DNA from: a virus
Taxonomy: Duplodnaviria > Heunggongvirae > Uroviricota > Caudoviricetes > Herelleviridae
Length of the DNA: 64,000 nt
Direction: 5' to 3' (one strand)
IMG/VR virus record: IMGVR_UViG_2706796076_000001
The position numbers and the translations under genes were made by a program. Within the stretch, counting starts at the first letter, position 1; each line of letters starts with the position of its first letter. The notes under the pieces are model-generated. The model saw only the letters and a program-made list of their open reading frames with translations. It made no database searches and had not been told where the DNA came from. Of this stretch, positions 2,845-58,804 are shown one piece after another.

Positions 2845-3891
2845 ATGTCACTAAGAAAAGCAGTAGAATTAAATAATAAAGAAGATAAATTAGAACCAAT
2901 TAATTGGAATAAACAATCAGACGGTATGTCTGAGATTTATTGGAACCAAGGTGTTAATCAAATCTGGTTTCCTGAAGAGTTCGATATTTCCAGGGATTTA
3001 AATTCTTGGAATGAACTCTCTGACATTGAGAGAGAAACTTATAAAAAAGTTTTAGCAGGGTTAACTGGTTTAGATGCTAAACAAGGCGGAGAAGGTATGA
3101 ACCTTATTTCATATCAAGAACCTAGAAGACATTATAAAGCTGTTTTTGGATATATGGGTATGATGGAGTTTGTACATGAACGTTCATACTCTCATATATT
3201 TACAACTATTTTAAATAATAAAGAAACTAATTATTTATTAGATGAGTGGGTAAGAGAAGAAAGCCACTTAATTAAAAAAGCTCAATTTATTGGTTATTTT
3301 TACAAAAAGTTACTAAACCCAGAGCCTACTACTTTTGATAGATATATGGCAAAAGTTGCCAGTGCGTTTTTAGAGAGTGCCTTATTCTACTCAGGGTTCT
3401 ATTACCCTTTACTTTTAGCAGGTCAAGGTCGTATGACACAATCAGGAGCTGTTATATTTAAAATAACTCAAGATGAATCATATCATGGTTCAGCAGTAGG
3501 GTTGACAGCACAATATGATTATGAACAATTAACAGATACGGAAAAAGAAAAAGCTGATAAATTAATGTATAAATTACTTGACATATTATATGATAATGAA
3601 GTATCTTATACACATATGTTATATGATGACTTAGGATTAACTGAAGATGTAATTAGATATGTAGAATATAATTTTAATAGAGCCTTATCTAATTTAGGTA
3701 AAGAAGATTATTTTCATCCAGAACCTTTTAATGCTATTGTTAATAATCAAATTGATGTAGGTAGAATGAGACACGTAGATTTCTTTAGTGGGAAAGCAGA
3801 TTATGAAAAATCTACTAATATTAAAGATATTAAAGATGATGATTTTAATATCGAAGATAATGAAAGTGATTTAGTAGATAAATTTTTATGA
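2845..3891 (+). CDS. nrdF: Class Ib ribonucleotide reductase beta subunit NrdF
   Basis: EFVHERSYSHIF metal/radical site motif. SD AAAGGAAGGA before ATG 2845; the ORF track start at 2818 overlaps the nrdE stop. Confidence 0.85.
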   Translation: MSLRKAVELNNKEDKLEPINWNKQSDGMSEIYWNQGVNQIWFPEEFDISRDLNSWNELSDIERETYKKVLAGLTGLDAKQGGEGMNLISYQEPRRHYKAVFGYMGMMEFVHERSYSHIFTTILNNKETNYLLDEWVREESHLIKKAQFIGYFYKKLLNPEPTTFDRYMAKVASAFLESALFYSGFYYPLLLAGQGRMTQSGAVIFKITQDESYHGSAVGLTAQYDYEQLTDTEKEKADKLMYKLLDILYDNEVSYTHMLYDDLGLTEDVIRYVEYNFNRALSNLGKEDYFHPEPFNAIVNNQIDVGRMRHVDFFSGKADYEKSTNIKDIKDDDFNIEDNESDLVDKFL

Positions 3892-7976: not shown

Positions 7977-9073
7977 TAAATTGGGGTTGTAAAACTTTGT
8001 TAACTGCGGGGAGAAACTTGTTAGGTCTTAACTACTAACTTATAATGGAAACATATATAAGGGCAAACAGTAATGTGTTTGGTACAGTAAAAAGGTTAAG
8101 AATAAAGAGAATCCGCAACCAAGCCCCTGAAAGTGTATGGAAGTATGGGGAAGGCTCAACGACTAGGTGTTGAGGTAGCACAACCAATACACACCCACGA
8201 AAGCAAGGATATTATTTCTGTGGTAGGGAATAGTAAGGAAGAGTATATGAAAGAAGTTTGGAAAGATTATGATGATAAATATAAAGTAAGTAATACAGGT
8301 AGAGTAATAAATAAAATTACTAAGCATGAATTAAAACCATGGATTATTAATTCAGGGTACAAACAAGTTACAGTTACTGAGGGTAACATATTAGTACATA
8401 GATTAGTAGCAAAGCTTTTTATACCTAACAATAATCCTAATCTAAATGTTGTTAACCACATCGATAATAATAGATTGAATAACCACGTAAACAACCTAGA
8501 ATGGGTAGATTATAGGGGCAATACCTTACACTCTGCTAAACAAGGTAGACAAAATACGTATAGTGCTAGGGAACAACTTAAAAAGGTATCTAATAAAGCA
8601 GTATATCAAAAAGATATGGAAGGTAATATTGTTAAGGTGTGGGATTCACCCACTCAAGCACAAAGAGAAACTGGTGGGTATTTTAGCCCATCACAAATAA
8701 GTCAAGTAATTTCTGGAAGACATAAATCACATAAAGGTTATAAGTGGGAGTATGTAAATAAAGAGTCTAAAAGAAGTAAAAATATGAAAATTGATGTATT
8801 TGACTTAGACGGTAATCTATTGTATACTAAGTATAGTATGAATAAGGTGATGAAACTACTCAACATGAATAATCATAAGACATTGAGAGATAAATTAAGA
8901 AAAACAGATGACTTTGTAGAGTATAAAGGATATAAATTTAGAAACAGTAAATAAACAATAAACCTACCACAGAAATGATATATGATATAGTCTGTCCTAT
9001 ATAGAGATATATAGCTATTGTTTAAATGACAATAGATACAATATAATAAATAAATTATATTGTACACAAGTAA
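7977..9073 (+). mobile_element. Group I intron in the DNA polymerase gene carrying an HNH homing endonuclease gene (exact 3' boundary uncertain)
   Basis: The coding sequence resumes exactly at NLQNIVAHTSN...DYSALELRV (Pol A motif A) at 9074. GC-rich structured RNA lies at 7980-8130. The inferred intron ends in A rather than the canonical G. Confidence 0.65.
8247..8954 (+). CDS. HNH homing endonuclease (intron-encoded), NUMOD4-like N-terminus
   Basis: KVSNTGRVINK is a NUMOD4-like motif. VHRLVAKLFIPNNNPNLNVVNHIDNNRLNNHVNNLEW is an HNH motif. SD AAGGAAG before ATG 8247; the upstream extension to 8133 is probably untranslated intron RNA. Confidence 0.8.
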   Translation: MKEVWKDYDDKYKVSNTGRVINKITKHELKPWIINSGYKQVTVTEGNILVHRLVAKLFIPNNNPNLNVVNHIDNNRLNNHVNNLEWVDYRGNTLHSAKQGRQNTYSAREQLKKVSNKAVYQKDMEGNIVKVWDSPTQAQRETGGYFSPSQISQVISGRHKSHKGYKWEYVNKESKRSKNMKIDVFDLDGNLLYTKYSMNKVMKLLNMNNHKTLRDKLRKTDDFVEYKGYKFRNSK

Positions 9074-35742: not shown

Positions 35743-36051
35743 ATGATAGTTAAAAATGTAGATTCTATTGTGCTAGAAAGTATGTATAGTTGGTTATTAG
35801 ATAACAAAATAGAAGAATATAAAGTAGTTAAAGAAGATATATACTCTAATCATGGTTGTCATATCCTACTAAAAAAAGGAACAATACTACTTGAAACTAA
35901 AGGTAGTTATGAAGATTCTTTAGGTACTAGATATGTTCTAAGCCCTAAGACAGTAGAAGTTAAGTTAGAGGGATTTTACGAGAATGGTGTAGGTTTTAAA
36001 TTTGAAGAACATAAAATTAATAAGGAATTATATAAAATTGATTTAACTTAA
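35743..36051 (+). CDS. hypothetical protein (102 aa)
   Basis: SD ATAGGAGGAG. Confidence 0.5.
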   Translation: MIVKNVDSIVLESMYSWLLDNKIEEYKVVKEDIYSNHGCHILLKKGTILLETKGSYEDSLGTRYVLSPKTVEVKLEGFYENGVGFKFEEHKINKELYKIDLT

Positions 36052-45658: not shown

Positions 45659-46051
45659 ATGGAATTTAAAGTGTTTGACGCTTTAGTAGATAAGGTTAAA
45701 GAGTTAGGTAATATACAAACTGAAACAATGCGTGAACAAGGATTTAAAATTAAATATCGAGATTGCCAGCTAGGTGACATAATCCCCTCTGGGATTAATG
45801 TCCTCTATAAAGGTGAGGTTATTGCATTTATCACACATGGTCATTATGCAGGTGTTCTTAGTCATAAAATGAATACTGATTATGAAAAATATAAACATTG
45901 TGAAACGTTAATGGATTTTTTACATTATTGCCTAAAAGAACATTTAGATACTCAAAAAAGAATTGAAAAACGTGAGAAAGAAAGAGATAGAAAAGAAAGA
46001 ATAGAAGCTAGAGATAGAGAAATAAAATTGAATAACTTTATAGATAGTTAA
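45659..46051 (+). CDS. hypothetical protein (~130 aa) with basic coiled-coil C-terminus
   Basis: SD AAAGGAGAGGTGG before ATG 45659. Last plus-strand gene before the strand switch. Confidence 0.5.
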   Translation: MEFKVFDALVDKVKELGNIQTETMREQGFKIKYRDCQLGDIIPSGINVLYKGEVIAFITHGHYAGVLSHKMNTDYEKYKHCETLMDFLHYCLKEHLDTQKRIEKREKERDRKERIEARDREIKLNNFIDS

Positions 46052-46387
46052 AAAAGGAGCTGTTAAGATAACGCCAAGAATATTCCCTAACTAGTATTGG
46101 GTTAATATATAATACAGGAGAAGAAAAATGGTTTGATACTGCAAATGAAGGTGTAGAAGATAATAGTTATCAGAGAGTTAACTATAACGAAGAATATAAT
46201 ATATTAGAAGTCATTGTACGTAAATCAAATAATAAATAAAATTAATAATAACAATAAAAAATAACATAAGTAAAGCCCTTTATATATGAGTATAAACAAT
46301 ATAGAGGATTTATTAATAAGTAATATAATAATAAAGAAATAATAGGTAGTAAGTAATAGAGGTAGTAATAAAGTAATATGTAAGAGT

Positions 46388-46996
46388 AAGAATAAAAGGA
46401 AATAAGAAAAGAAAAGAGAAACTAATTACTTATTAATATATAAATAAAACTCCTATTCTTTGTATTATTACTCTTTGATTATTAAAAAGGAGGGATAAAG
46501 TATACAGATATATATATATATATATAGATAAAAAAATAGAAGAAATCTATATAGTATAAATAAGGAAAAATTAGTAAAAGTATAGAGAAAAAAGAAAAAA
46601 GAAAAAAGATAAACCAATTACCCTAGGACTTTTTTGTCTGTCCTATTCGTTGTCTTGACCTGTTTTGACGTTACCTGTTTAAGAATAAAAGGAAATAAGA
46701 AAAGAAAAGAGAAACTTAATTAACTTATTAATATATAAATAAAACTCCTATTCTTTGTATTATTACTCTTTGATTATTAAAAAGGAGGGATAAAGTATAC
46801 AGATATATATATATATATATAGATAAAAAAATAGAAGAAATCTATATAGTATAAATAAGGAAAAATTAGTAAAAGTATAGAAGAAAAAAGAAAAAAGAAA
46901 AAAGAAAAAAGAAAAAAGAAAAAAGTAAACCAATTACCCTAGGACTTTTTTGTCTGTCCTATTCGTTGTCTTGACCTGTTTTGACGTTACCTGTTT
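46388..46996. repeat. Perfectly abutting tandem duplication of a ~300-bp unit (copy 1 46388-46680, copy 2 46681-46996) with variable internal (TA)n and (GAAAAAA)n microsatellites
   Basis: The copies are nearly identical apart from (TA) 9 vs 10, GAAAAAA x3 vs x6 and small indels. Each unit carries TTAAAAAGGAGGGATAAAG and ends TTGTCTTGACCTGTTTTGACGTTACCTGTTT. It sits in a 1.1-kb ORF-free region. Confidence 0.9.
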
Positions 46997-47071
46997 ACTA
47001 TAATTTATTTATATTACTACTACAATATACTTAAACATTACATTACTATTGTATACAACTTAATAATAAAC

Positions 47072-47108
47072 AAAAAAAAATACCGCTTCTATATTACTGA
47101 AGCGGTAC
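47072..47108 (-). terminator. rho-independent terminator for the minus-strand gene block (TACCGCTTC-loop-GAAGCGGTA)
   Basis: On the plus strand A9 precedes the hairpin, which reads as hairpin + U-run on the minus strand. It lies downstream of gene 47182..47448(-). Confidence 0.65.
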
Positions 47109-47181
47109 TCAACTATTCTGATATACTATTCAATTGTTCTAATATATAGTTAAACTATGCTAATGTATAGTCCATGTAGTA

Positions 47182-48282: not shown

Positions 48283-48957
48283 ATGAAAAAAATTACACAA
48301 GAAGAATTAAACAATAAAATTGAATTGCATAAAGAATGGTTAGAAGATGATAACAAAGGGGAAAAGTTAGAATTAAATGGTTATAACTTAAGAAATTTAG
48401 ATTTAAGTAATTCTGATTTAAGGTACTCTAGTTTAAGTTGTTCTATTTTAAGTAATGTAGATTTAAGTTACTCTGATTTAAGTTTTTCTACTTTAAAAGA
48501 TGCTGATTTAGTAAAGATGGATTTAACAAAGGCTATTATAAGTTTTTCTAATTTAGAAAATATTGACTTAAATAGTGTTAATTTGAAAAATGCTAACTTA
48601 TATGGTGCTAATTTAGATAGTTCTTATTTAAGATGTGTTGATTTTAAAAATGCTAGTTTAAAGAATGCTAATTTAGATAATGCTCATTTAGAAAATTGTA
48701 ATCTAGAAGATGTTAATTTATCTCAAGCTAATACCCGATGTATTGAAGGACTAGAAGTATATTCAATTGACAATATAGGTACATTTGCAGGTAAAGTAAC
48801 GTATTTACCAGAGCAAGATAAAGTATTTGCTGGTTGCTGGAAAGGTAATTTAGAAAAGTTTTTAGAAAAAGGATTAGAAATGAATAAAGATAATGAGAAA
48901 GAAAAAAGGAATATTTTTAATGCTTATCAATTCTTTTTAGGTACTACAATTGATTAA
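48283..48957 (+). CDS. pentapeptide-repeat protein (Qnr/MfpA-like right-handed quadrilateral beta-helix) with C-terminal extra domain
   Basis: About 25 consecutive A(D/N)LxX pentapeptides: NLRNL DLSNS DLRYS SLSCS ILSNV DLSYS DLSFS TLKDA DLVKM DLTKA ... NLKNA NLYGA NLDSS ... The SD is AAAAGGAGAAG. Confidence 0.8.
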   Translation: MKKITQEELNNKIELHKEWLEDDNKGEKLELNGYNLRNLDLSNSDLRYSSLSCSILSNVDLSYSDLSFSTLKDADLVKMDLTKAIISFSNLENIDLNSVNLKNANLYGANLDSSYLRCVDFKNASLKNANLDNAHLENCNLEDVNLSQANTRCIEGLEVYSIDNIGTFAGKVTYLPEQDKVFAGCWKGNLEKFLEKGLEMNKDNEKEKRNIFNAYQFFLGTTID

Positions 48958-50096: not shown

Positions 50097-50137
50097 ACCG
50101 CTTCAGATTAAATTCTCGAAGCGGTCTTATTTTTTTA
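50097..50137 (+). terminator. rho-independent terminator (ACCGCTTC-loop-GAAGCGGT + T9)
   Basis: 8-bp stem followed by a T-run. Confidence 0.8.
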
Positions 50138-50208
50138 GGATGAAGACCTTAAAAAATTTAGGATGATACCCCCTTAAAAATTTTTACGATAGGTTGCTTA
50201 AAAATTTC
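50137..50208. repeat. three imperfect ~23-bp direct repeats (AGGATGAnnCC..CTTAAAAATTT)
   Basis: Seen directly. They lie upstream of the promoter at 50275. Confidence 0.5.
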
Positions 50209-50274
50209 AAAAAAGTTTTATTTATAATAAGATAAACTTATATCAAGTAATAAGTAAAAGTTATCATTTTTTAC

Positions 50275-50303
50275 TTGACCTGATATTAAAAGTATGGTAT
50301 AGT
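50275..50303 (+). promoter_or_regulatory. sigma70-like promoter driving an ORF-free structured region
   Basis: TTGACC, a 17-nt spacer, then TGgTATAGT. Confidence 0.5.
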
Positions 50304-50309
50304 ATAAGT

Positions 50310-50670
50310 ACAATAAGATAAAGAGCTGATGAGTATAGGTCATGCATAGGAACCTATAGGAATAGCGACAACGATGTGGTGGTAGTGAGCCACGAGCACC
50401 TGCATAAAACTCACAGGGCGGGTATAAGATATGCAATGCTTATACTTTGTAGGTATAGATACACTATACCTTCTACCATAGTTGGTGATGTCTACCAAGC
50501 AATAAAGGACAGGGAGGACTCTTAGGTTCAATATGAACGGGGTAGTATTAACCTATTAATTTAGGTTGCGTGGATAAGAGTGCGTGTAAAAATATTAACA
50601 AAAATGAAACTAGACCTAGCCTAAACTGAAATATGATTTAGCTCTAGTATTAATATCTTTTTTAATACTA
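50310..50670 (+). ncRNA. candidate structured non-coding RNA (unknown class)
   Basis: About 360 nt with locally elevated GC and many short perfect inverted repeats (GTATAAG/CTTATAC, GGTATAG/CTATACC, GTGAG/CTCAC, GTTCA/TGAAC). There is no plausible ORF; the two minus-strand ORFs on the track here lack SDs. A promoter lies upstream and a T-run at ~50657. Confidence 0.3.
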
Positions 50671-50714
50671 GGGGGTTAATCTACCCACTACCTTCCTGAA
50701 TACTATTATATATT

Positions 50715-50901
50715 CAAGTAGTATTGTCTATATTTTACCTATATAATGTAAGTAGTATTGTATGAATTTTATTCAAATATTCTTATAAATATACATAATT
50801 AGTAAGTAGTATTGTATGAAAAAGGCTAGTTGTTTCAAGTAGTCTGGTGTCTATTTTCCCCTAAAAATAGCAAGTAGTATCGTACGGATTTCCCCTAAAA
50901 A
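50715..50901. repeat. iteron-like array: 5 direct copies of AAGTAGTATTGT(ATGAA) plus 2 copies of TTTCCCCTAAAAA
   Basis: Copies begin at 50716, 50750, 50804, 50837 and 50872. Copies 2 and 3 are identical over 19 bp (GTAAGTAGTATTGTATGAA); copies 4 and 5 are degenerate. TTTCCCCTAAAAA sits at 50855 and 50888. Confidence 0.8.
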
Positions 50902-50940
50902 AGATATAAGATATAGAACATAAAAAGACTAGGGAAAACC

Positions 50941-51141
50941 CTAGTCTAATTGATTATATAATTTTTTTAATTCATTTTCTAGTTTATTAATTTTTTCTAT
51001 ATCATTATTTCTTTTTGCTTTTCTTAATAAACTTTCTTTTATTTTTATTTTTCCACTATTTTTATTTAATTCTTTTTTTAATCCATTTTCTTTTATATTT
51101 TTATTTAATGATTTTCTTTTATCTACTTTAATATGTGTCAT
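50941..51141 (-). CDS. small basic coiled-coil protein (66 aa)
   Basis: K/N/E-rich protein on the minus strand. Confidence 0.4.
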   Translation of the reverse strand: MTHIKVDKRKSLNKNIKENGLKKELNKNSGKIKIKESLLRKAKRNNDIEKINKLENELKKLYNQLD

Positions 51142-51173
51142 TATAATTCATTCCTTTTTAATTAATTTTTTTA

Positions 51174-51395
51174 TTAAATGTTTTTTCTTATAAAGTTATA
51201 AGCTTGTCTGTTTGTCATGTGTTCATAATCACCATCAGGGAATAGAGCAACTAGTTCATCATTCTCAGTAGCAAATTCAATGTTATGAATGATAATCCCT
51301 TTCAATGTGCTCCCACAACCGTCTGGCGTGTTGTATTCTTCAAAATCATAATCATTTCTTTTTAACCAATTTTTTAAATTTTTAACGTTTTTCAT
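51174..51395 (-). CDS. hypothetical protein (73 aa)
   Basis: Minus-strand ORF with a candidate promoter at 51462-51492(-). Confidence 0.45.
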   Translation of the reverse strand: MKNVKNLKNWLKRNDYDFEEYNTPDGCGSTLKGIIIHNIEFATENDELVALFPDGDYEHMTNRQAYNFIRKNI

Positions 51396-51915
51396 TTTTA
51401 ATCAATTCCTTTTTTATATAATATTTGTAGTGGGAATTTGTTTCCCTTGCTTACTACACTTAATATATTACAGCATATTACCGTATTTGTAAATAGAATT
51501 TTAAAAGTTTTAGGGCAATTTTACACTATTTACAAAAGAAAAAAGTGTAAAATTTACCCCTTGACAAATTGGCAAAAATGCCTTAACATAATAATTGGAG
51601 TGGTGGGTGGGTTATAAAAAAAGGGTATTATATAATTTTTTTTATATAATATATTTATTAACTTAAAGATAGTCATCACTTCTATTATATATTAATCTGC
51701 ATTAAAAAGCAATAGTCAATTTTACACCTTATTTCTGTTTATAAATGGATCATGACAGGTACATTATATTTCTATAATTTTTTTATAGAATAATTTTTTT
51801 ATGGTGAGATCTTGTTGTACACAATCTAATTTTATTTTAACCTATTTTCCAGTTTCTTCATATAATAGTAGAAAACAGACCAATAAAAAAATTTAAATAA
51901 ATTCATGTAAATCTA

Positions 51916-51944: not shown

Positions 51945-51980
51945 ATAATTACAGTAATTCACAGAAAGGAATTGTTAAAA

Positions 51981-52289
51981 ATGTATAAAAATAATATAGA
52001 ATTAATTGCAAATAATATAATGGAAACATTTGGTTATGATGGTTATAAGTCCAAAAACTTATACCGAAACGATTTAGGGGGTACAGGTTGGCATCCAGAA
52101 TTGACTGTACATGTACCTAGTGGCTTATATAGTGAAGATATTACTTTTTATAAAAGAAATAAGCTATTTGGTAAAACGCCTTATGATTACGGAATAGCAC
52201 GGGAATATAAAGGGTTAACTTTCTTTATTGTACAAGGTGGCGTTATCGTTATTGATAACGGGGAAATTGTTTTTGATGAAATAATTTAA
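51981..52289 (+). CDS. hypothetical protein (~103 aa)
   Basis: RBS AAAGGAATTGTTAAAAATG (cassette-type RBS). Confidence 0.5.
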   Translation: MYKNNIELIANNIMETFGYDGYKSKNLYRNDLGGTGWHPELTVHVPSGLYSEDITFYKRNKLFGKTPYDYGIAREYKGLTFFIVQGGVIVIDNGEIVFDEII

Positions 52290-52491: not shown

Positions 52492-52773
52492 ATGAAAAAG
52501 AATTTTAAATATGAAGAAACAGTGACAGTAAATGGAAACGAGATTACAGTGTTCAGAATTGAAAATGATAATAACGGAAACCCTAGATATGTAGTACACT
52601 TTAGCGACCTGGGTATTAGCCTTTGGGATTATGACGATATTAACAAGCTATACGGTTTTAAAAAGTACACTGCTAAATGGTTTGGTGGTGGTGTAGTATT
52701 CCAAAGCTACAACATTGAAGAAACTATCAAATGGGCACTAGAAACAGTTAAAGAAAAAGAAGCGGTTAAATAA
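52492..52773 (+). CDS. hypothetical protein (93 aa)
   Basis: RBS AAAGGATTTGATTTAAATG. Its stop lies in the GAAGCGGT/ACCGCTTC hairpin at 52762-52786. Confidence 0.5.
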   Translation: MKKNFKYEETVTVNGNEITVFRIENDNNGNPRYVVHFSDLGISLWDYDDINKLYGFKKYTAKWFGGGVVFQSYNIEETIKWALETVKEKEAVK

Positions 52774-53770: not shown

Positions 53771-53902
53771 ATGAAAAAAATTACAACAACTTTAAAATTA
53801 ATCGGTATGAAAAATAATGAAAATTTTGCAGAAGAATTAAAAAACTACCGTCAAGATGTTACATTTTTGAAAGCAAATAAAATTGTAAAATATTCAAAAT
53901 AA
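53771..53902 (+). CDS. hypothetical 43-aa protein (below cutoff)
   Basis: RBS GAAGGGAATTGATTTAAATG. Reads MKKITTTLKLIGMKNNENFAEEL... Confidence 0.45.
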   Translation: MKKITTTLKLIGMKNNENFAEELKNYRQDVTFLKANKIVKYSK

Positions 53903-57318: not shown

Positions 57319-58746
57319 ATGGATAAAATAATTAAAGTATATAAAAATAATAAACCTTGTTACATAGACTTAAATAATGTACCTACTAAAATACAACCAT
57401 CTGGAAAAGAAGTATATGATTTTAAAAAATGTAATAATACAGAAGTTCCTTTTGAGTATATAGGTGTTAAAGGTTATATAGTAATAGAAGAATATTTACC
57501 TAGTACTAAAGATAATAAAAAAGCTCGTTTAAAATTAAAGTATGATAATAACTATTATGTTATAAATAAAGAAAGTTTTTTAAATGTATCACTTAAAAGT
57601 ATAGTAGGTGATAAATTAGAACACAGTAAAGAATCAGCTAAAAGAAAGATGTATTATGAAAGCTTACCTCTAAAAAATAATGGTAAAGTAGATTTAAAAA
57701 ATAGTATTGGTTGTGATGTTTACTTTGAATTTAATAACTATAAGGGTTACGTCACTATCTTAGACTATTTTACTAAATATAATAATAAGGGTAAAGAAAT
57801 TGGTTATATAAGATTAGAACATGATAATAAAAATAGGTTATATAATGAGTATAATTTCTTTACTTGTAATATATCTTATTTAGCTAATAAGAACTCTGAT
57901 GCTAATAAAAATTTAATAGGTGAAGTAAATAATAACTATGAGATAGTTGATTATTTTAATGAAGAGTTTATAAATAAAGATGGTACTATAAATACAAGAA
58001 ATATGTTTAAAGTTAAGTGTTTAACTTGCGGTACAGTTAAGAAGGTTAGAGTAGACCATTTTTTAAATGGAGTACAAAAAAATTGTGGTTATTGTGCGGA
58101 ATTAAAAAGTAAAAACAAAGAAAATAAAAATAAATTTAATATAAAAAGAAGTTATCCAGAGAAAGTTGTTAAAGCTTACTTAGATGAGTTAGATATTTCT
58201 TATATACAAGAAAAAACTTTTGATTTCTTAAAAAGAAGAAGGTATGATTTCTATTTACCAAATTTAAATTGTGTTATAGAGGTTCACGGTGCTCAACATT
58301 ATAAAGAGTTAAGAGAAGGTGCTAGATTTAAACTAACTTTAGAGGAACAACAAAGAGTAGATAAAGAGAAAAAAGACGCGGTTCTTAATAATGGTATTAA
58401 ATATGTAGAGATAAATGCTGAGCTTTCTGACTTTGAATACATTAAAAATAGTATTAAAAACTCTTCTTTATATAATACTGATGTTAATTGGTTTAATGTT
58501 TTCAAAAACTCTTTCTATGATACAGATAATATTTTATTAGTTAAAAAATTATATGAAAAAAATTTAACTTTAAAAGAAATATCTATAGAATCTAAATTAA
58601 ATAAAAAAGTTGTAAGAGAGTATATAAATAAATTAAAAAAATTAAATCAGATAGAATATGAAGCTTATGAATTTGAAATAAGAGACTACCAAAAAGAAAT
58701 AGATATATTGCAAAGTAAAATAGATAATTTAAAAAGCAAGAGATAA
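57319..58746 (+). CDS. putative endonuclease: Zn-ribbon + DUF559/Vsr-like PD-(D/E)xK domain + C-terminal HTH
   Basis: CLTCGT...CGYCA forms a Cys4 ribbon. RRYDFYLPNLNCVIEVHGAQHY resembles the DUF559/Vsr-like endonuclease core. The C-terminal LTLKEISIESKLNKKVVREYINKL is an HTH. SD AATAAGGAGAAA. Confidence 0.45.
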   Translation: MDKIIKVYKNNKPCYIDLNNVPTKIQPSGKEVYDFKKCNNTEVPFEYIGVKGYIVIEEYLPSTKDNKKARLKLKYDNNYYVINKESFLNVSLKSIVGDKLEHSKESAKRKMYYESLPLKNNGKVDLKNSIGCDVYFEFNNYKGYVTILDYFTKYNNKGKEIGYIRLEHDNKNRLYNEYNFFTCNISYLANKNSDANKNLIGEVNNNYEIVDYFNEEFINKDGTINTRNMFKVKCLTCGTVKKVRVDHFLNGVQKNCGYCAELKSKNKENKNKFNIKRSYPEKVVKAYLDELDISYIQEKTFDFLKRRRYDFYLPNLNCVIEVHGAQHYKELREGARFKLTLEEQQRVDKEKKDAVLNNGIKYVEINAELSDFEYIKNSIKNSSLYNTDVNWFNVFKNSFYDTDNILLVKKLYEKNLTLKEISIESKLNKKVVREYINKLKKLNQIEYEAYEFEIRDYQKEIDILQSKIDNLKSKR

Positions 58747-58804
58747 AAACTCTTGCTTTTATTTATATAGATTACTTAAATAATAAGCAACCTTTTATAT
58801 AATA

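Follow-up and report, generated by a model that had tools for sequence, protein, structure and literature searches.

A conserved direct-repeat array in the terminal-repeat region of Twort-like staphylococcal phages, a putative protein-binding element

Introduction

Some terminase recognition sites are made of repeated boxes, such as the R sites of lambda cosB and the pacL and pacR sites of SPP1, and repeat arrays flank the terminal repeat of T7. The iterons of replication origins are known from lambda ori, P1 oriR and the octamers of P4 ori. In phage T5, the first-step-transfer stop is a repeat-rich non-coding stretch of the long terminal repeat, which divides the first-expressed genes from the rest.

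Staphylococcal phage therapy relies mainly on the Twort-like myoviruses (phage K, ISP, Sb-1, SEP1 and relatives). The long terminal repeat (LTR) of kayviruses is bracketed by the 12-bp inverted repeats TAAGTACCTGGG and CCCAGGTACTTA (PMC6022877, PMC4111496, PMC7596081). Just before the LTR, the kayvirus unit genome ends with a variable tandem repeat of 35 bp (TATTAYTACTACTAAGTACCTTTGTTATGTACTAC), present in 2 to more than 20 copies, for which a role in replication and packaging has been suggested (PMC6445280).

The array of direct repeats described here may bear on LTR formation, on the site where replication starts and on the timing of early and middle genes in Twort-like phages. It offers a concrete handle, with an invariant core of 7–10 nt present in 4–5 copies, in more than 200 genomes, at the seam between early and middle genes, and with a word that also occurs at LTR ends. 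Should it prove to be a regulator site of the routine kind, the gain is limited to a useful annotation.

The repeat array and its surroundings

The DNA analysed here (the window, 64,000 nucleotides of the IMG/VR record IMGVR_UViG_2706796076_000001) is 100% identical over positions 50100–51500 to Staphylococcus phage vB_SepM_phiIPLA-C1C (KP027447.1, 111308–112708), a Sepunavirus of the Twortvirinae, Herelleviridae. The genome coordinate in this phage is the window coordinate plus 61,208. An original prediction, made from the sequence alone, described five direct repeats in an ORF-free gap and proposed that they form either a replication origin or an array of binding sites. It lacked the real context, which is the terminal-repeat and host-takeover region of Twort-like phages. 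The annotation to the right of the array contains TreK, TreO and TreN, "terminal repeat encoded" genes of these phages. The features of the locus are the following.

50275..50690, plus strand: upstream neighbour, outside the array; sigma-70-type promoter (50275–50303) and structured segment
50715..50748, plus strand: unit 1, CAAGTAGTATTGT and a 21-nt spacer, 34 bp; identical or nearly so in 15 Sepunavirus records
50749..50802, plus strand: unit 2, TAAGTAGTATTGTATGAA and a long AT-rich spacer, 54 bp
50803..50835, plus strand: unit 3, beginning with TAAGTAGTATTGTATGAA, 33 bp; the homology of SEP1 to the window begins here
50836..50870, plus strand: unit 4, CAAGTAGTCTGGTGTCTATTTTCCCCTAAAAATAG, 35 bp, a complete two-box unit
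50871..50905, plus strand: unit 5, CAAGTAGTATCGTACGGATTTCCCCTAAAAAAGAT, last and best conserved
50926..50947, no strand assigned: bidirectional terminator-like hairpin AGACTAGGGAAAACCCTAGTCT, right-hand close of the array
50941..51395, minus strand: two small genes of 66 aa (very basic) and 73 aa, in the treI slot of kayviruses
51419..51480, plus strand: conserved non-coding promoter block ATATTTGTAG...CCCTTGCTTACTACACTTAATATATTACAG, a synteny anchor

The YAAGTAGT units start at 50715, 50749, 50803, 50836 and 50871, all on one strand, with start-to-start distances of 34, 54, 33 and 35 bp. What had been said of the five direct copies holds throughout, including their positions: exact copies of AAGTAGTATTGT stand at 50716, 50750 and 50804, degenerate ones at 50837 (AAGTAGTCTGGT) and 50872 (AAGTAGTATCGT), and the 19-mer GTAAGTAGTATTGTATGAA is identical in units 2 and 3 (50748–50766 and 50802–50820). 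TTTCCCCTAAAAA is present twice in the array. The array word of SEP1 and phiIPLA-C1C is YAAGTAGTATYGTA, and its phage K equivalent is TAAGTAGCTC. A second, interleaved repeat had also been described: TTTCCCCTA(AAAA) does occur at 50855 and 50889, and nowhere else on the plus strand, but it is not a separate repeat, since it is the 3' half of one unit in related phages. The last unit has a C-rich box (...ATTTCCCCTAAAAAA), which is followed by the hairpin at 50926–50947.

The array word is not rare. The original prediction had advised a search for further copies of the repeat, and window-wide the 12-mer has 24 matches with at most two mismatches, against 23.7 expected; an exact copy at 35881 (minus strand) lies within a coding region and was taken as chance. 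Only the clustering of the word is unusual, not its frequency. On the plus strand, 5 of the 13 copies of AAGTAGT in the window fall within 170 bp; when 13 sites are placed at random, the probability of at least four in 170 bp is 4.5e-5 by simulation, and at least five were seen in none of 200,000 simulations (analytic bound 3e-7). The finding is thus real and non-random, a direct-repeat array, which is an already-known kind of putative protein-binding element.

The gap between convergent genes is as it had been described: there is no ORF of at least 30 aa between 50531 and 50941, and the array lies between a plus-strand block and two minus-strand genes (50941–51141 and 51174–51395). These genes belong to phrog_28819 and phrog_33516, two PHROGs of unknown function; they have no Pfam match, no similarity to TreI by BLASTP, and no recognisable DNA-binding domain is found in the neighbouring proteins. 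The hairpin at 50926–50947 has its T-run on the minus strand, which makes it mainly a terminator of the minus-strand genes, and it is carried as a terminator in the annotations of Terranova, Twillingate and SEP1. Beyond these genes are a TreJ-like ORF (51972–52289, E 1.8e-6) and homologues of TreK (52492–52773, 76% identity) and TreO (53771–53902, 93% identity). No homologue of treA–H is found upstream of the array in the window.

The predicted promoter-driven neighbour is also present: downstream of the promoter, a segment of about 385 nt is conserved, structured, ORF-free and RNA-like (hereafter, ncRNA). No canonical terminator separates it from the array. Rfam has no family for the array or the ncRNA, either at the gathering threshold or at E≤10, no tRNA or tmRNA was found, and nhmmer gives no match between the ncRNA and the abundant lncRNAs of phage K. 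A tie to the protein–RNA anti-CRISPR AcrIIIA1 of Twillingate was considered and rejected, since the AcrIIIA1 RNAs are fragments of host t(m)RNA and hence unrelated. The array itself remains unexplained by the annotation, as had been noted.

The GC content of the array is 0.267, against a window mean of 0.268. Its only AT-rich part is the long spacer of unit 2 (54 bp); this spacer is missing in SEP1, Quidividi and BE04. The plus strand is locally C-rich and G-poor after each core. The RNA fold of the array surpasses that of shuffled sequences only marginally, with a z of −2.1 which arises from the repeats themselves, and there is no conserved secondary structure. A CRISPR-like array or an RNA anti-CRISPR repeat was rejected: these have repeats of 28–37 nt that resemble a host CRISPR repeat, and unique spacers that are uniform in length, whereas the array has cores of 7–19 nt and spacers of 21–42 nt that are partly homologous to each other. 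No Rfam CRISPR family matches the array.

Relatives of the array

The array matches 20 phage records, all of the Sepunavirus type, 15 of them over the full length at 92–100% identity. A loose scan of viral contigs (AAGTAG three times) returned noise only, and a strict two-copy 12-mer pattern was found in four viral contigs and in four unrelated bacterial or archaeal contigs, none of which is staphylococcal.

The ncRNA segment of the window is replaced by an HNH homing-endonuclease gene (Pfam HNH_3 and NUMOD4) in Quidividi and BE04, and by a truncated HNH-like ORF in SEP1. These three phages keep four units directly after the upstream stop codon, in the form of a cleaner tandem unit of 33–35 bp, YAAGTAG-N7-10-(G)ATTTCCCCTAAAAATAG. 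The last two units are the best conserved in this comparison, while the upstream units are degenerate in Quidividi and BE04. The homology of these two phages to the window begins at 50850, within unit 4; unit 5 is the only unit still inside the aligned stretch. Sepunavirus homology breakpoints lie within the array at 50804 and 50850. Repeats can confuse assemblies, and the record of BE25 breaks inside the array: its "end", at window position 50880, is a 77-bp overlap between the record ends that stems from assembly, not a mapped terminus.

More distant arrays are found in other Twort-like phages. The Staphylococcus xylosus phages of the PG-2021_10 type have both the upstream structured segment and the downstream non-coding block of the window. 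Between these two blocks, PG-2021_10 has five TAAGTAx units spaced by 36, 49, 36 and 47 bp, the last one being CAAGTAGTTCTCGATATTTTCCCCTAG. OPT-SC01 has four units spaced by 48, 36 and 47 bp, without the structured segment. PG-2021_10 shares 90% identity with kayviruses from the last unit on, through the terminator, treI and the treI–treJ promoter region; the block at 51419–51480 is common to the window, PG-2021_10 and the kayvirus treI–treJ intergenic region.

In the kayvirus 676Z, four copies of CTAAGTAGCTC at 2952, 2975, 2998 and 3023 form an array (2952–3044) between treH and treI. A single base separates the stop codon of treH from this array, and the 3' end of treI lies beyond it. This segment has 210 matching records, including phage K (NC_005880.2, 2900–3162), and 170 of the matches have a coverage of at least 80%. 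The GenBank records examined carry no annotation of the kayvirus array, and a literature search for the motif found no mention of it, although earlier genome descriptions may hold one. The counterparts of unit 5 are CAAGTAG..TTTCCCCTAG in PG-2021_10, CAAGTAG..TTCCCCCTAG in OPT-SC01 and TAAGTAGCTCCCTCTG in kayviruses.

Judged from their sequences, the arrays of the window, PG-2021_10, OPT-SC01 and kayviruses are orthologous, because they have the same position, strand and core word and their flanks can be aligned. The family, a YAAGTAG array in the treH/treI slot of Twortvirinae, is defined here by three features, all of which are found in the window. It has at least four direct YAAGTAG cores with the orientation of the tre genes (in the window, five copies of CAAGTAG or TAAGTAG), it is positioned immediately before the 3' end of the minus-strand gene or genes that precede treJ and treK, and its last unit is followed by a C-rich box and a terminator hairpin, with the conserved promoter block downstream. 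The array is thus no peculiarity of phiIPLA-C1C but a conserved, unannotated, putatively cis-acting element found in more than 200 Twort-like phages of Staphylococcus. The absence of the repeats from related phages had been named among the observations that would refute the original reading; the array is kept, with 4 or 5 units in the related phages compared, and this check does not refute it.

Conservation of the core was examined in four divergent kayviruses, 676Z, Stab20, ESa1 and LJT-1 (75–100% identity). None of their 17 units deviates from the 10-nt core TAAGTAGCTC, whereas the spacers are of 23, 25, 30 or 36 bp and differ in sequence, and ESa1 has a fifth unit where the others have four. 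In comparisons across genera, only YAAGTAG is left of the common core, the spacing ranges from 23 to 54 bp and the copy number is 4 or 5. An invariant core amid drifting spacers and copy numbers points to selection on a protein-recognition site. Since a short word is kept while spacing and copy number are free, independent protein-recognition sites appear more plausible than a folded RNA or a neutral minisatellite. The proposal of a binding-site array is therefore the part of the original prediction that these comparisons favor, and we consider it probable that the array is a conserved, selected, DNA-level element that binds a protein.

Terminal repeat ends and the junction repeat

The kayvirus array is located 2.95–3.3 kb inside the LTRs, as mapped by end sequencing (676Z and Staph1N), coverage (J-Sa36) and PhageTerm (ESa1), and it appears twice in records which hold both LTR copies. 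The kayvirus core CTAAGTA(G)CT is the word that marks the LTR ends (TAAGTACCTG abutting GG on one side, CC abutting CAGGTACTTA on the other) and that fills the 35-bp junction repeat. In the sequence of phage K, CTAAGTACCTG abuts GGAATTC at the left LTR edge, and CC abuts CAGGTACTTA at the right edge. About 41 kb of kayvirus DNA contain seven copies of CTAAGTA[GC]CT, four in the intra-LTR array and three in junction repeats, and none elsewhere. The shorter word TAAGTA[GC] occurs about 0.5 times per kb outside the kayvirus LTR, the background expected from composition. Over the initial 6.8 kb of the 676Z LTR its density is 1.5 per kb; of the 10 copies there, 9 are non-coding, among them a cluster near the left end, at 54 and 337–363. 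In PG-2021_10, a homologue of the left end of the kayvirus LTR (85% identity over 447 nt), preceded by CAAGAACCTGGG, lies 4.1 kb upstream of the array.

The same elements were looked for in the window. TAAGTACCTGGG and TAAGTACC are absent from it, and its only ACCTGGG is intragenic, at 52607. Downstream in the window, including the expected right LTR end (58.75–58.85 kb), none of the array units has an inverted partner, and no second site resembling an LTR end and carrying the Sepunavirus core is found in the window. A bracket partner near 58.75–58.85 kb was considered and rejected: all that was found there is a 14/15 match to the left flank of the array (GAATACTATTATATA), picked post hoc, and the hexamer TACTTA, and SEP1, BE06 and Twillingate keep neither. 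Nor was the beginning of the Terranova record (window 46942, where AATTACCC abuts TAGGAC) accepted as a mapped terminus, the announcement of this genome stating no terminus method. The record-start word has no inverted copy in the window, and this start is a candidate terminus only. No report of mapped Sepunavirus LTR ends was found in the literature searched.

Possible functions

The reading that we favor, to which we give a probability of roughly one in three for the whole chain, is that the cores are recognized by a factor that reads LTR ends and that acts in end processing or packaging. The array would be the Sepunavirus version of a cis-acting DNA element of the Twortvirinae, made of 4–5 direct YAAGTAG cores on the tre-gene strand. 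The cores would be recognition sites for a sequence-specific DNA-binding protein, probably with one binding event per core, so that a fixed helical phasing would not be needed. Since, in kayviruses, the core word is common to the array, the LTR ends and the junction repeat, the array is probably read by the LTR-end factor; the simplest reading would be that a single DNA-binding factor recognizes the word in all three places. The array might then serve as a loading or recognition site in the processing of concatemers or LTR ends and in packaging, rather than as a replication start.

The link between the array and the LTR ends would be made by a common word of 7–10 nt, seen in kayviruses only, and this word is the one observation that would argue for a pac- or cosB-like site. 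A packaging recognition site 3–4 kb from the genome end would be unusual compared with lambda cosB and SPP1 pac. The TAAGTAG copies within 360 bp of the kayvirus left end would be better suited to a packaging role than the array. The neighbouring proteins, which show no DNA-binding domain, and the window, in which neither an inverted partner nor a further LTR-end-like site was found, also speak against this reading.

The main rival is a replication origin, as the original prediction proposed, and we regard it as unlikely, though it is the strongest of the alternatives. The repeats would be iterons for a phage initiator, and transcription from the upstream promoter might activate or prime replication, the priming transcript being the ncRNA in the window and treA–H in phage K. 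The 4–5 direct repeats in the same orientation (five in the window, when at least three are expected of iterons) are consistent with this, as are the kayvirus period of 23–25 bp with a unit of about 22 bp, which is classic iteron geometry, the AT palindrome GTCTATATATA(TA)GAC that follows the array in kayviruses and PG-2021_10, and the strong promoter that reads towards the array in the window. However, the GC content of the array is that of the window, with no conserved AT block of the unwinding type, and there is no adjacent initiator-like gene, the neighbours being PHROGs of unknown function or, in relatives, HNH endonucleases. The spacing varies between 23 and 54 bp, which is not usual where initiators assemble cooperatively, and the GC skew simply tracks gene orientation. 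A plus-strand transcription unit precedes the array in other lineages, possibly also in the window, and no canonical terminator lies between the two. The sole published origin candidate for this phage group is elsewhere, between gp190 and gp191 of phage K, in the gap which is the least transcribed and has the lowest GC content (PMC9241854, PMC11598898), although this is only a prediction. Nothing specific points to a replication origin, and that part of the original prediction was not borne out.

The array could instead be a boundary element between expression modules, that is, a protein roadblock, an insulator or a T5-like pause of DNA entry, which separates the earliest host-takeover genes on its right from later genes on its left. 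In SEP1, the "very early" host-takeover module (gp142–gp154 in RefSeq), right of the array, peaks at 5 min and drops more than 10-fold by 15 min, gp142 going from 45,286 RPKM at 5 min to 3,395 and 1,024 RPKM at 15 and 30 min (PMC11265418 and its supplementary table). The left edge of this module is the 73-aa minus-strand gene, next but one to the array. On the other side, expression of gp130–gp140 falls slowly in exponential cells, and in stationary cells it increases later (PMC11265418). In phage K, where gp009 is treI, the early cluster C1 (gp010–gp021) extends from treJ to the LTR end, right of the array, while treA–D and treG–H, on its left, cluster with middle genes (PMC11598898, Table 2). 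In two genera, the array thus stands where middle genes meet the earliest ones, a coincidence which is correlative and concerns two phages. Early and middle promoters are both of the sigma-A type, so that timing may depend on something else. Nevertheless, promoter strength and ordinary terminators could give rise to such a pattern, the literature searched documents no entry of the DNA in two steps in these phages, and a pause model requires the right genome end to enter first. Overall, this boundary reading seems rather improbable to us.

More doubtful again is a combination of the two ideas, according to which the array, read by the LTR-end factor, would divide the LTR into two halves, of which one, devoted to host takeover, acts first and the other later. 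It would act either as a T5-like entry pause or as a second recognition point to duplicate or resolve the LTR in concatemers. If true, it would explain why the sigma-A "middle" promoters on the left fire later than the "early" ones on the right in phage K and SEP1.

The initial main reading of this analysis was that the array is an LTR boundary. It was held because of the 35-bp period, the TAAGTA core, the SEP1 very-early module that follows the array and the BE25 end at 50880, and it was dropped because the flanks align, via PG-2021_10, inside LTRs, because of the treH–treI array, and because the BE25 end proved to be an assembly overlap. What survives of it, with little probability in our view, is that the Sepunavirus array is itself the left LTR junction, with a genome end in or after the last unit (about 50881). 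The period of 33–35 bp and the TAAGTA core are those of the kayvirus junction repeat (PMC6445280), the very-early module begins right after the array, the two homology breakpoints fall in it, treA–H homologues are missing upstream, and the distance from the array to the strand switch, 7.9 kb, is the size of a kayvirus LTR. Yet the kayvirus orthologue is well inside mapped LTRs and is duplicated with them, PG-2021_10, which has the ncRNA and array layout of the window, has its LTR-left homologue far upstream of the array, and no inverted partner motif occurs near 58.77 kb.

That the repeats work at the RNA level, as part of the 3' untranslated end of a transcript from upstream (ncRNA, HNH gene or treH), has an equally small chance of being correct. 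They would then offer sites to an RNA-binding protein or a small RNA, for example, or serve in termination or processing. The array follows directly on a stop codon in kayviruses, SEP1 and Quidividi, which implies that it is probably transcribed and may have an RNA-level role; it starts 1–6 nt after the stop of treH, of SEP1_141 or of the HNH gene of Quidividi, with no terminator between. The C-rich, G-poor composition after each core and the plus-strand RNA snc001 of phage K (3114–3628), just downstream of the array (PMC9241854), are also in line with it. Against it stand the modest fold score and the lack of conserved structure, as well as the widely varying spacer lengths; in addition, the same word is found at the LTR DNA ends in both orientations, which argues for recognition of DNA.

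Finally, a functionless minisatellite that decays after slippage is very improbable: the copy number does vary, from 4 to 5 in the array and from 2 to more than 20 in the kayvirus junction repeat (PMC6445280), and upstream units are degenerate in Quidividi and BE04, but the core is invariant in all 17 kayvirus units while the spacers diverge, and the array is kept in at least three divergent lineages and outlived the replacement of its upstream neighbour by three different inserts.

Comparison with known systems

Under the preferred reading, in which an LTR-end factor would bind the cores, the array would be comparable to terminase sites. With lambda cosB, SPP1 pac and T7 it has in common repeated short boxes near or within terminal repeats. 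The sites of lambda and SPP1 are read by the packaging machinery, and such a reading of the array would explain the word that it shares with genome ends. In lambda and SPP1 these sites are within a few hundred bp of the cut, whereas the array is probably 3–4 kb from the end.

The likeness to the iterons of plasmid and phage origins consists in several direct copies of a short recognition word, and the 23-bp period of kayviruses is iteron-like; the array differs by the lack of an initiator gene beside it, of a conserved AT-rich element for unwinding and of a regular spacing. The first-step-transfer region of T5 has no sequence similarity to the array, but it is also repeat-rich and non-coding, inside a terminal repeat and at the divide of the first-expressed genes.

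The kayvirus junction repeat resembles the array by its TAAGTA core, its direct tandem arrangement and its period of about 35 bp, and it has CTAAGTA(C/G)CT in common with the kayvirus intra-LTR array. It is at the LTR edge, whereas the window array, by orthology, would not be at an edge.

The kayvirus treH–treI array (4–5 copies of TAAGTAGCTC) is an orthologue of the window array. Its period is 23–36 bp instead of 33–54 bp, the 3' half of its unit is CTCCCT... instead of TATTGTATG or ATTTCCCCTAAAAA, and its upstream neighbour is treH instead of the ncRNA. The two arrays share the slot, the strand, the YAAGTAG core and the C-rich box after the core, and the last unit and downstream flank of one can be aligned to those of the other via PG-2021_10.

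Putative structured RNA upstream of the array

The ORF-free DNA upstream of the five YAAGTAG units begins with a promoter:

50275-50690, sigma-70-type promoter (TTGACC-17-TGgTATAGT) and, after it, about 385 nt of DNA without an ORF

This ORF-free segment is kept at 74-79% identity in the Silviavirus CF5, the Baoshanvirus phages BS1 and Golestan101, and PG-2021_10. Of the 44 pairs predicted for the 5' domain, 13 carry compensatory changes, a count which comes from five sequences only. No Rfam family was found for the segment, and it has no similarity to the lncRNA regions of phage K. The segment resembles a structured phage RNA that has not been described before.

HNH and HNH-like ORFs at the putative RNA locus and at the module edge

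In some sepunaviruses, an HNH gene or ORF stands in place of the structured-RNA locus and of the first array units (compared with window 50230-50850). It takes two forms: a free-standing HNH homing endonuclease (HNH_3 plus NUMOD4) or a truncated HNH-like ORF. The replacement loci are, in each locus's own numbering:

L013 1468-2415, Quidividi
L015 1467-2414, BE04
L014 1883-2461, SEP1

The breakpoints of the replacement fall within the array, at window 50804 or 50850.

An ORF with homing-endonuclease/HNH-like PHROG matches marks the right-hand limit of the very-early module, the host-takeover genes to the right of the array:

57319-58746, 475-aa ORF (phrog_4538)

Its SEP1 homologue is near-silent early and increases late. 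Sepunavirus homology stops at 58767, directly past the terminator of this ORF.

The AT-rich gap at 46 kb and record ends

Two further features lie upstream of the array:

46051-47181, AT-rich non-coding gap of 1.1 kb (GC 0.23)
48283-48957, pentapeptide-repeat protein gene, with a 15-nt periodicity detected by Tandem Repeats Finder

The annotations of phiIPLA-C1C, SEP1 and Terranova name the gene in this way. The gap contains a stretch of about 295 bp duplicated in tandem (copies 46393-46690 and 46688-46985), (AT)11 and (AGAAAAA)n runs, three TAAGTAA words upstream, and the site AATTACCC|TAGGAC, which is the start point of the Terranova GenBank record; no inverted copy of this site occurs within the window. 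The gap is a candidate for the true left junction of the long terminal repeat (LTR), or for an origin-like region.

The ends of the BE25 record (OQ355703.1) overlap by 77 bp, starting and finishing in array units, and the BE06 record breaks within an (ATT)n run. Both are assembly artefacts from repeats and do not mark genome termini.

Repeats in the vicinity and in related phages

Two copies of TAGGATGA, 23 bp apart (50136 and 50159), lie directly past the terminator of the plus-strand block. TAGGAT, which is reported to recur at high frequency in kayvirus genomes (PMC6445280), is also the word with which the Terranova record opens. In phage K, four direct copies of AAAGTCAACA (8540-8640; L010 1040-1140) are found just beyond the right LTR edge; this second array at the border of an LTR is made of a different repeat and has no annotation.

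In Silviavirus and Baoshanvirus, the DNA past the structured RNA carries other short direct repeats in place of YAAGTAG:

L005 4130-4212, CF5 (Silviavirus), two copies of TACTTACTTT
L006 4520-4750, BS1 (Baoshanvirus), ACTAAATAAAT-like words

These repeats may be lineage-specific counterparts.
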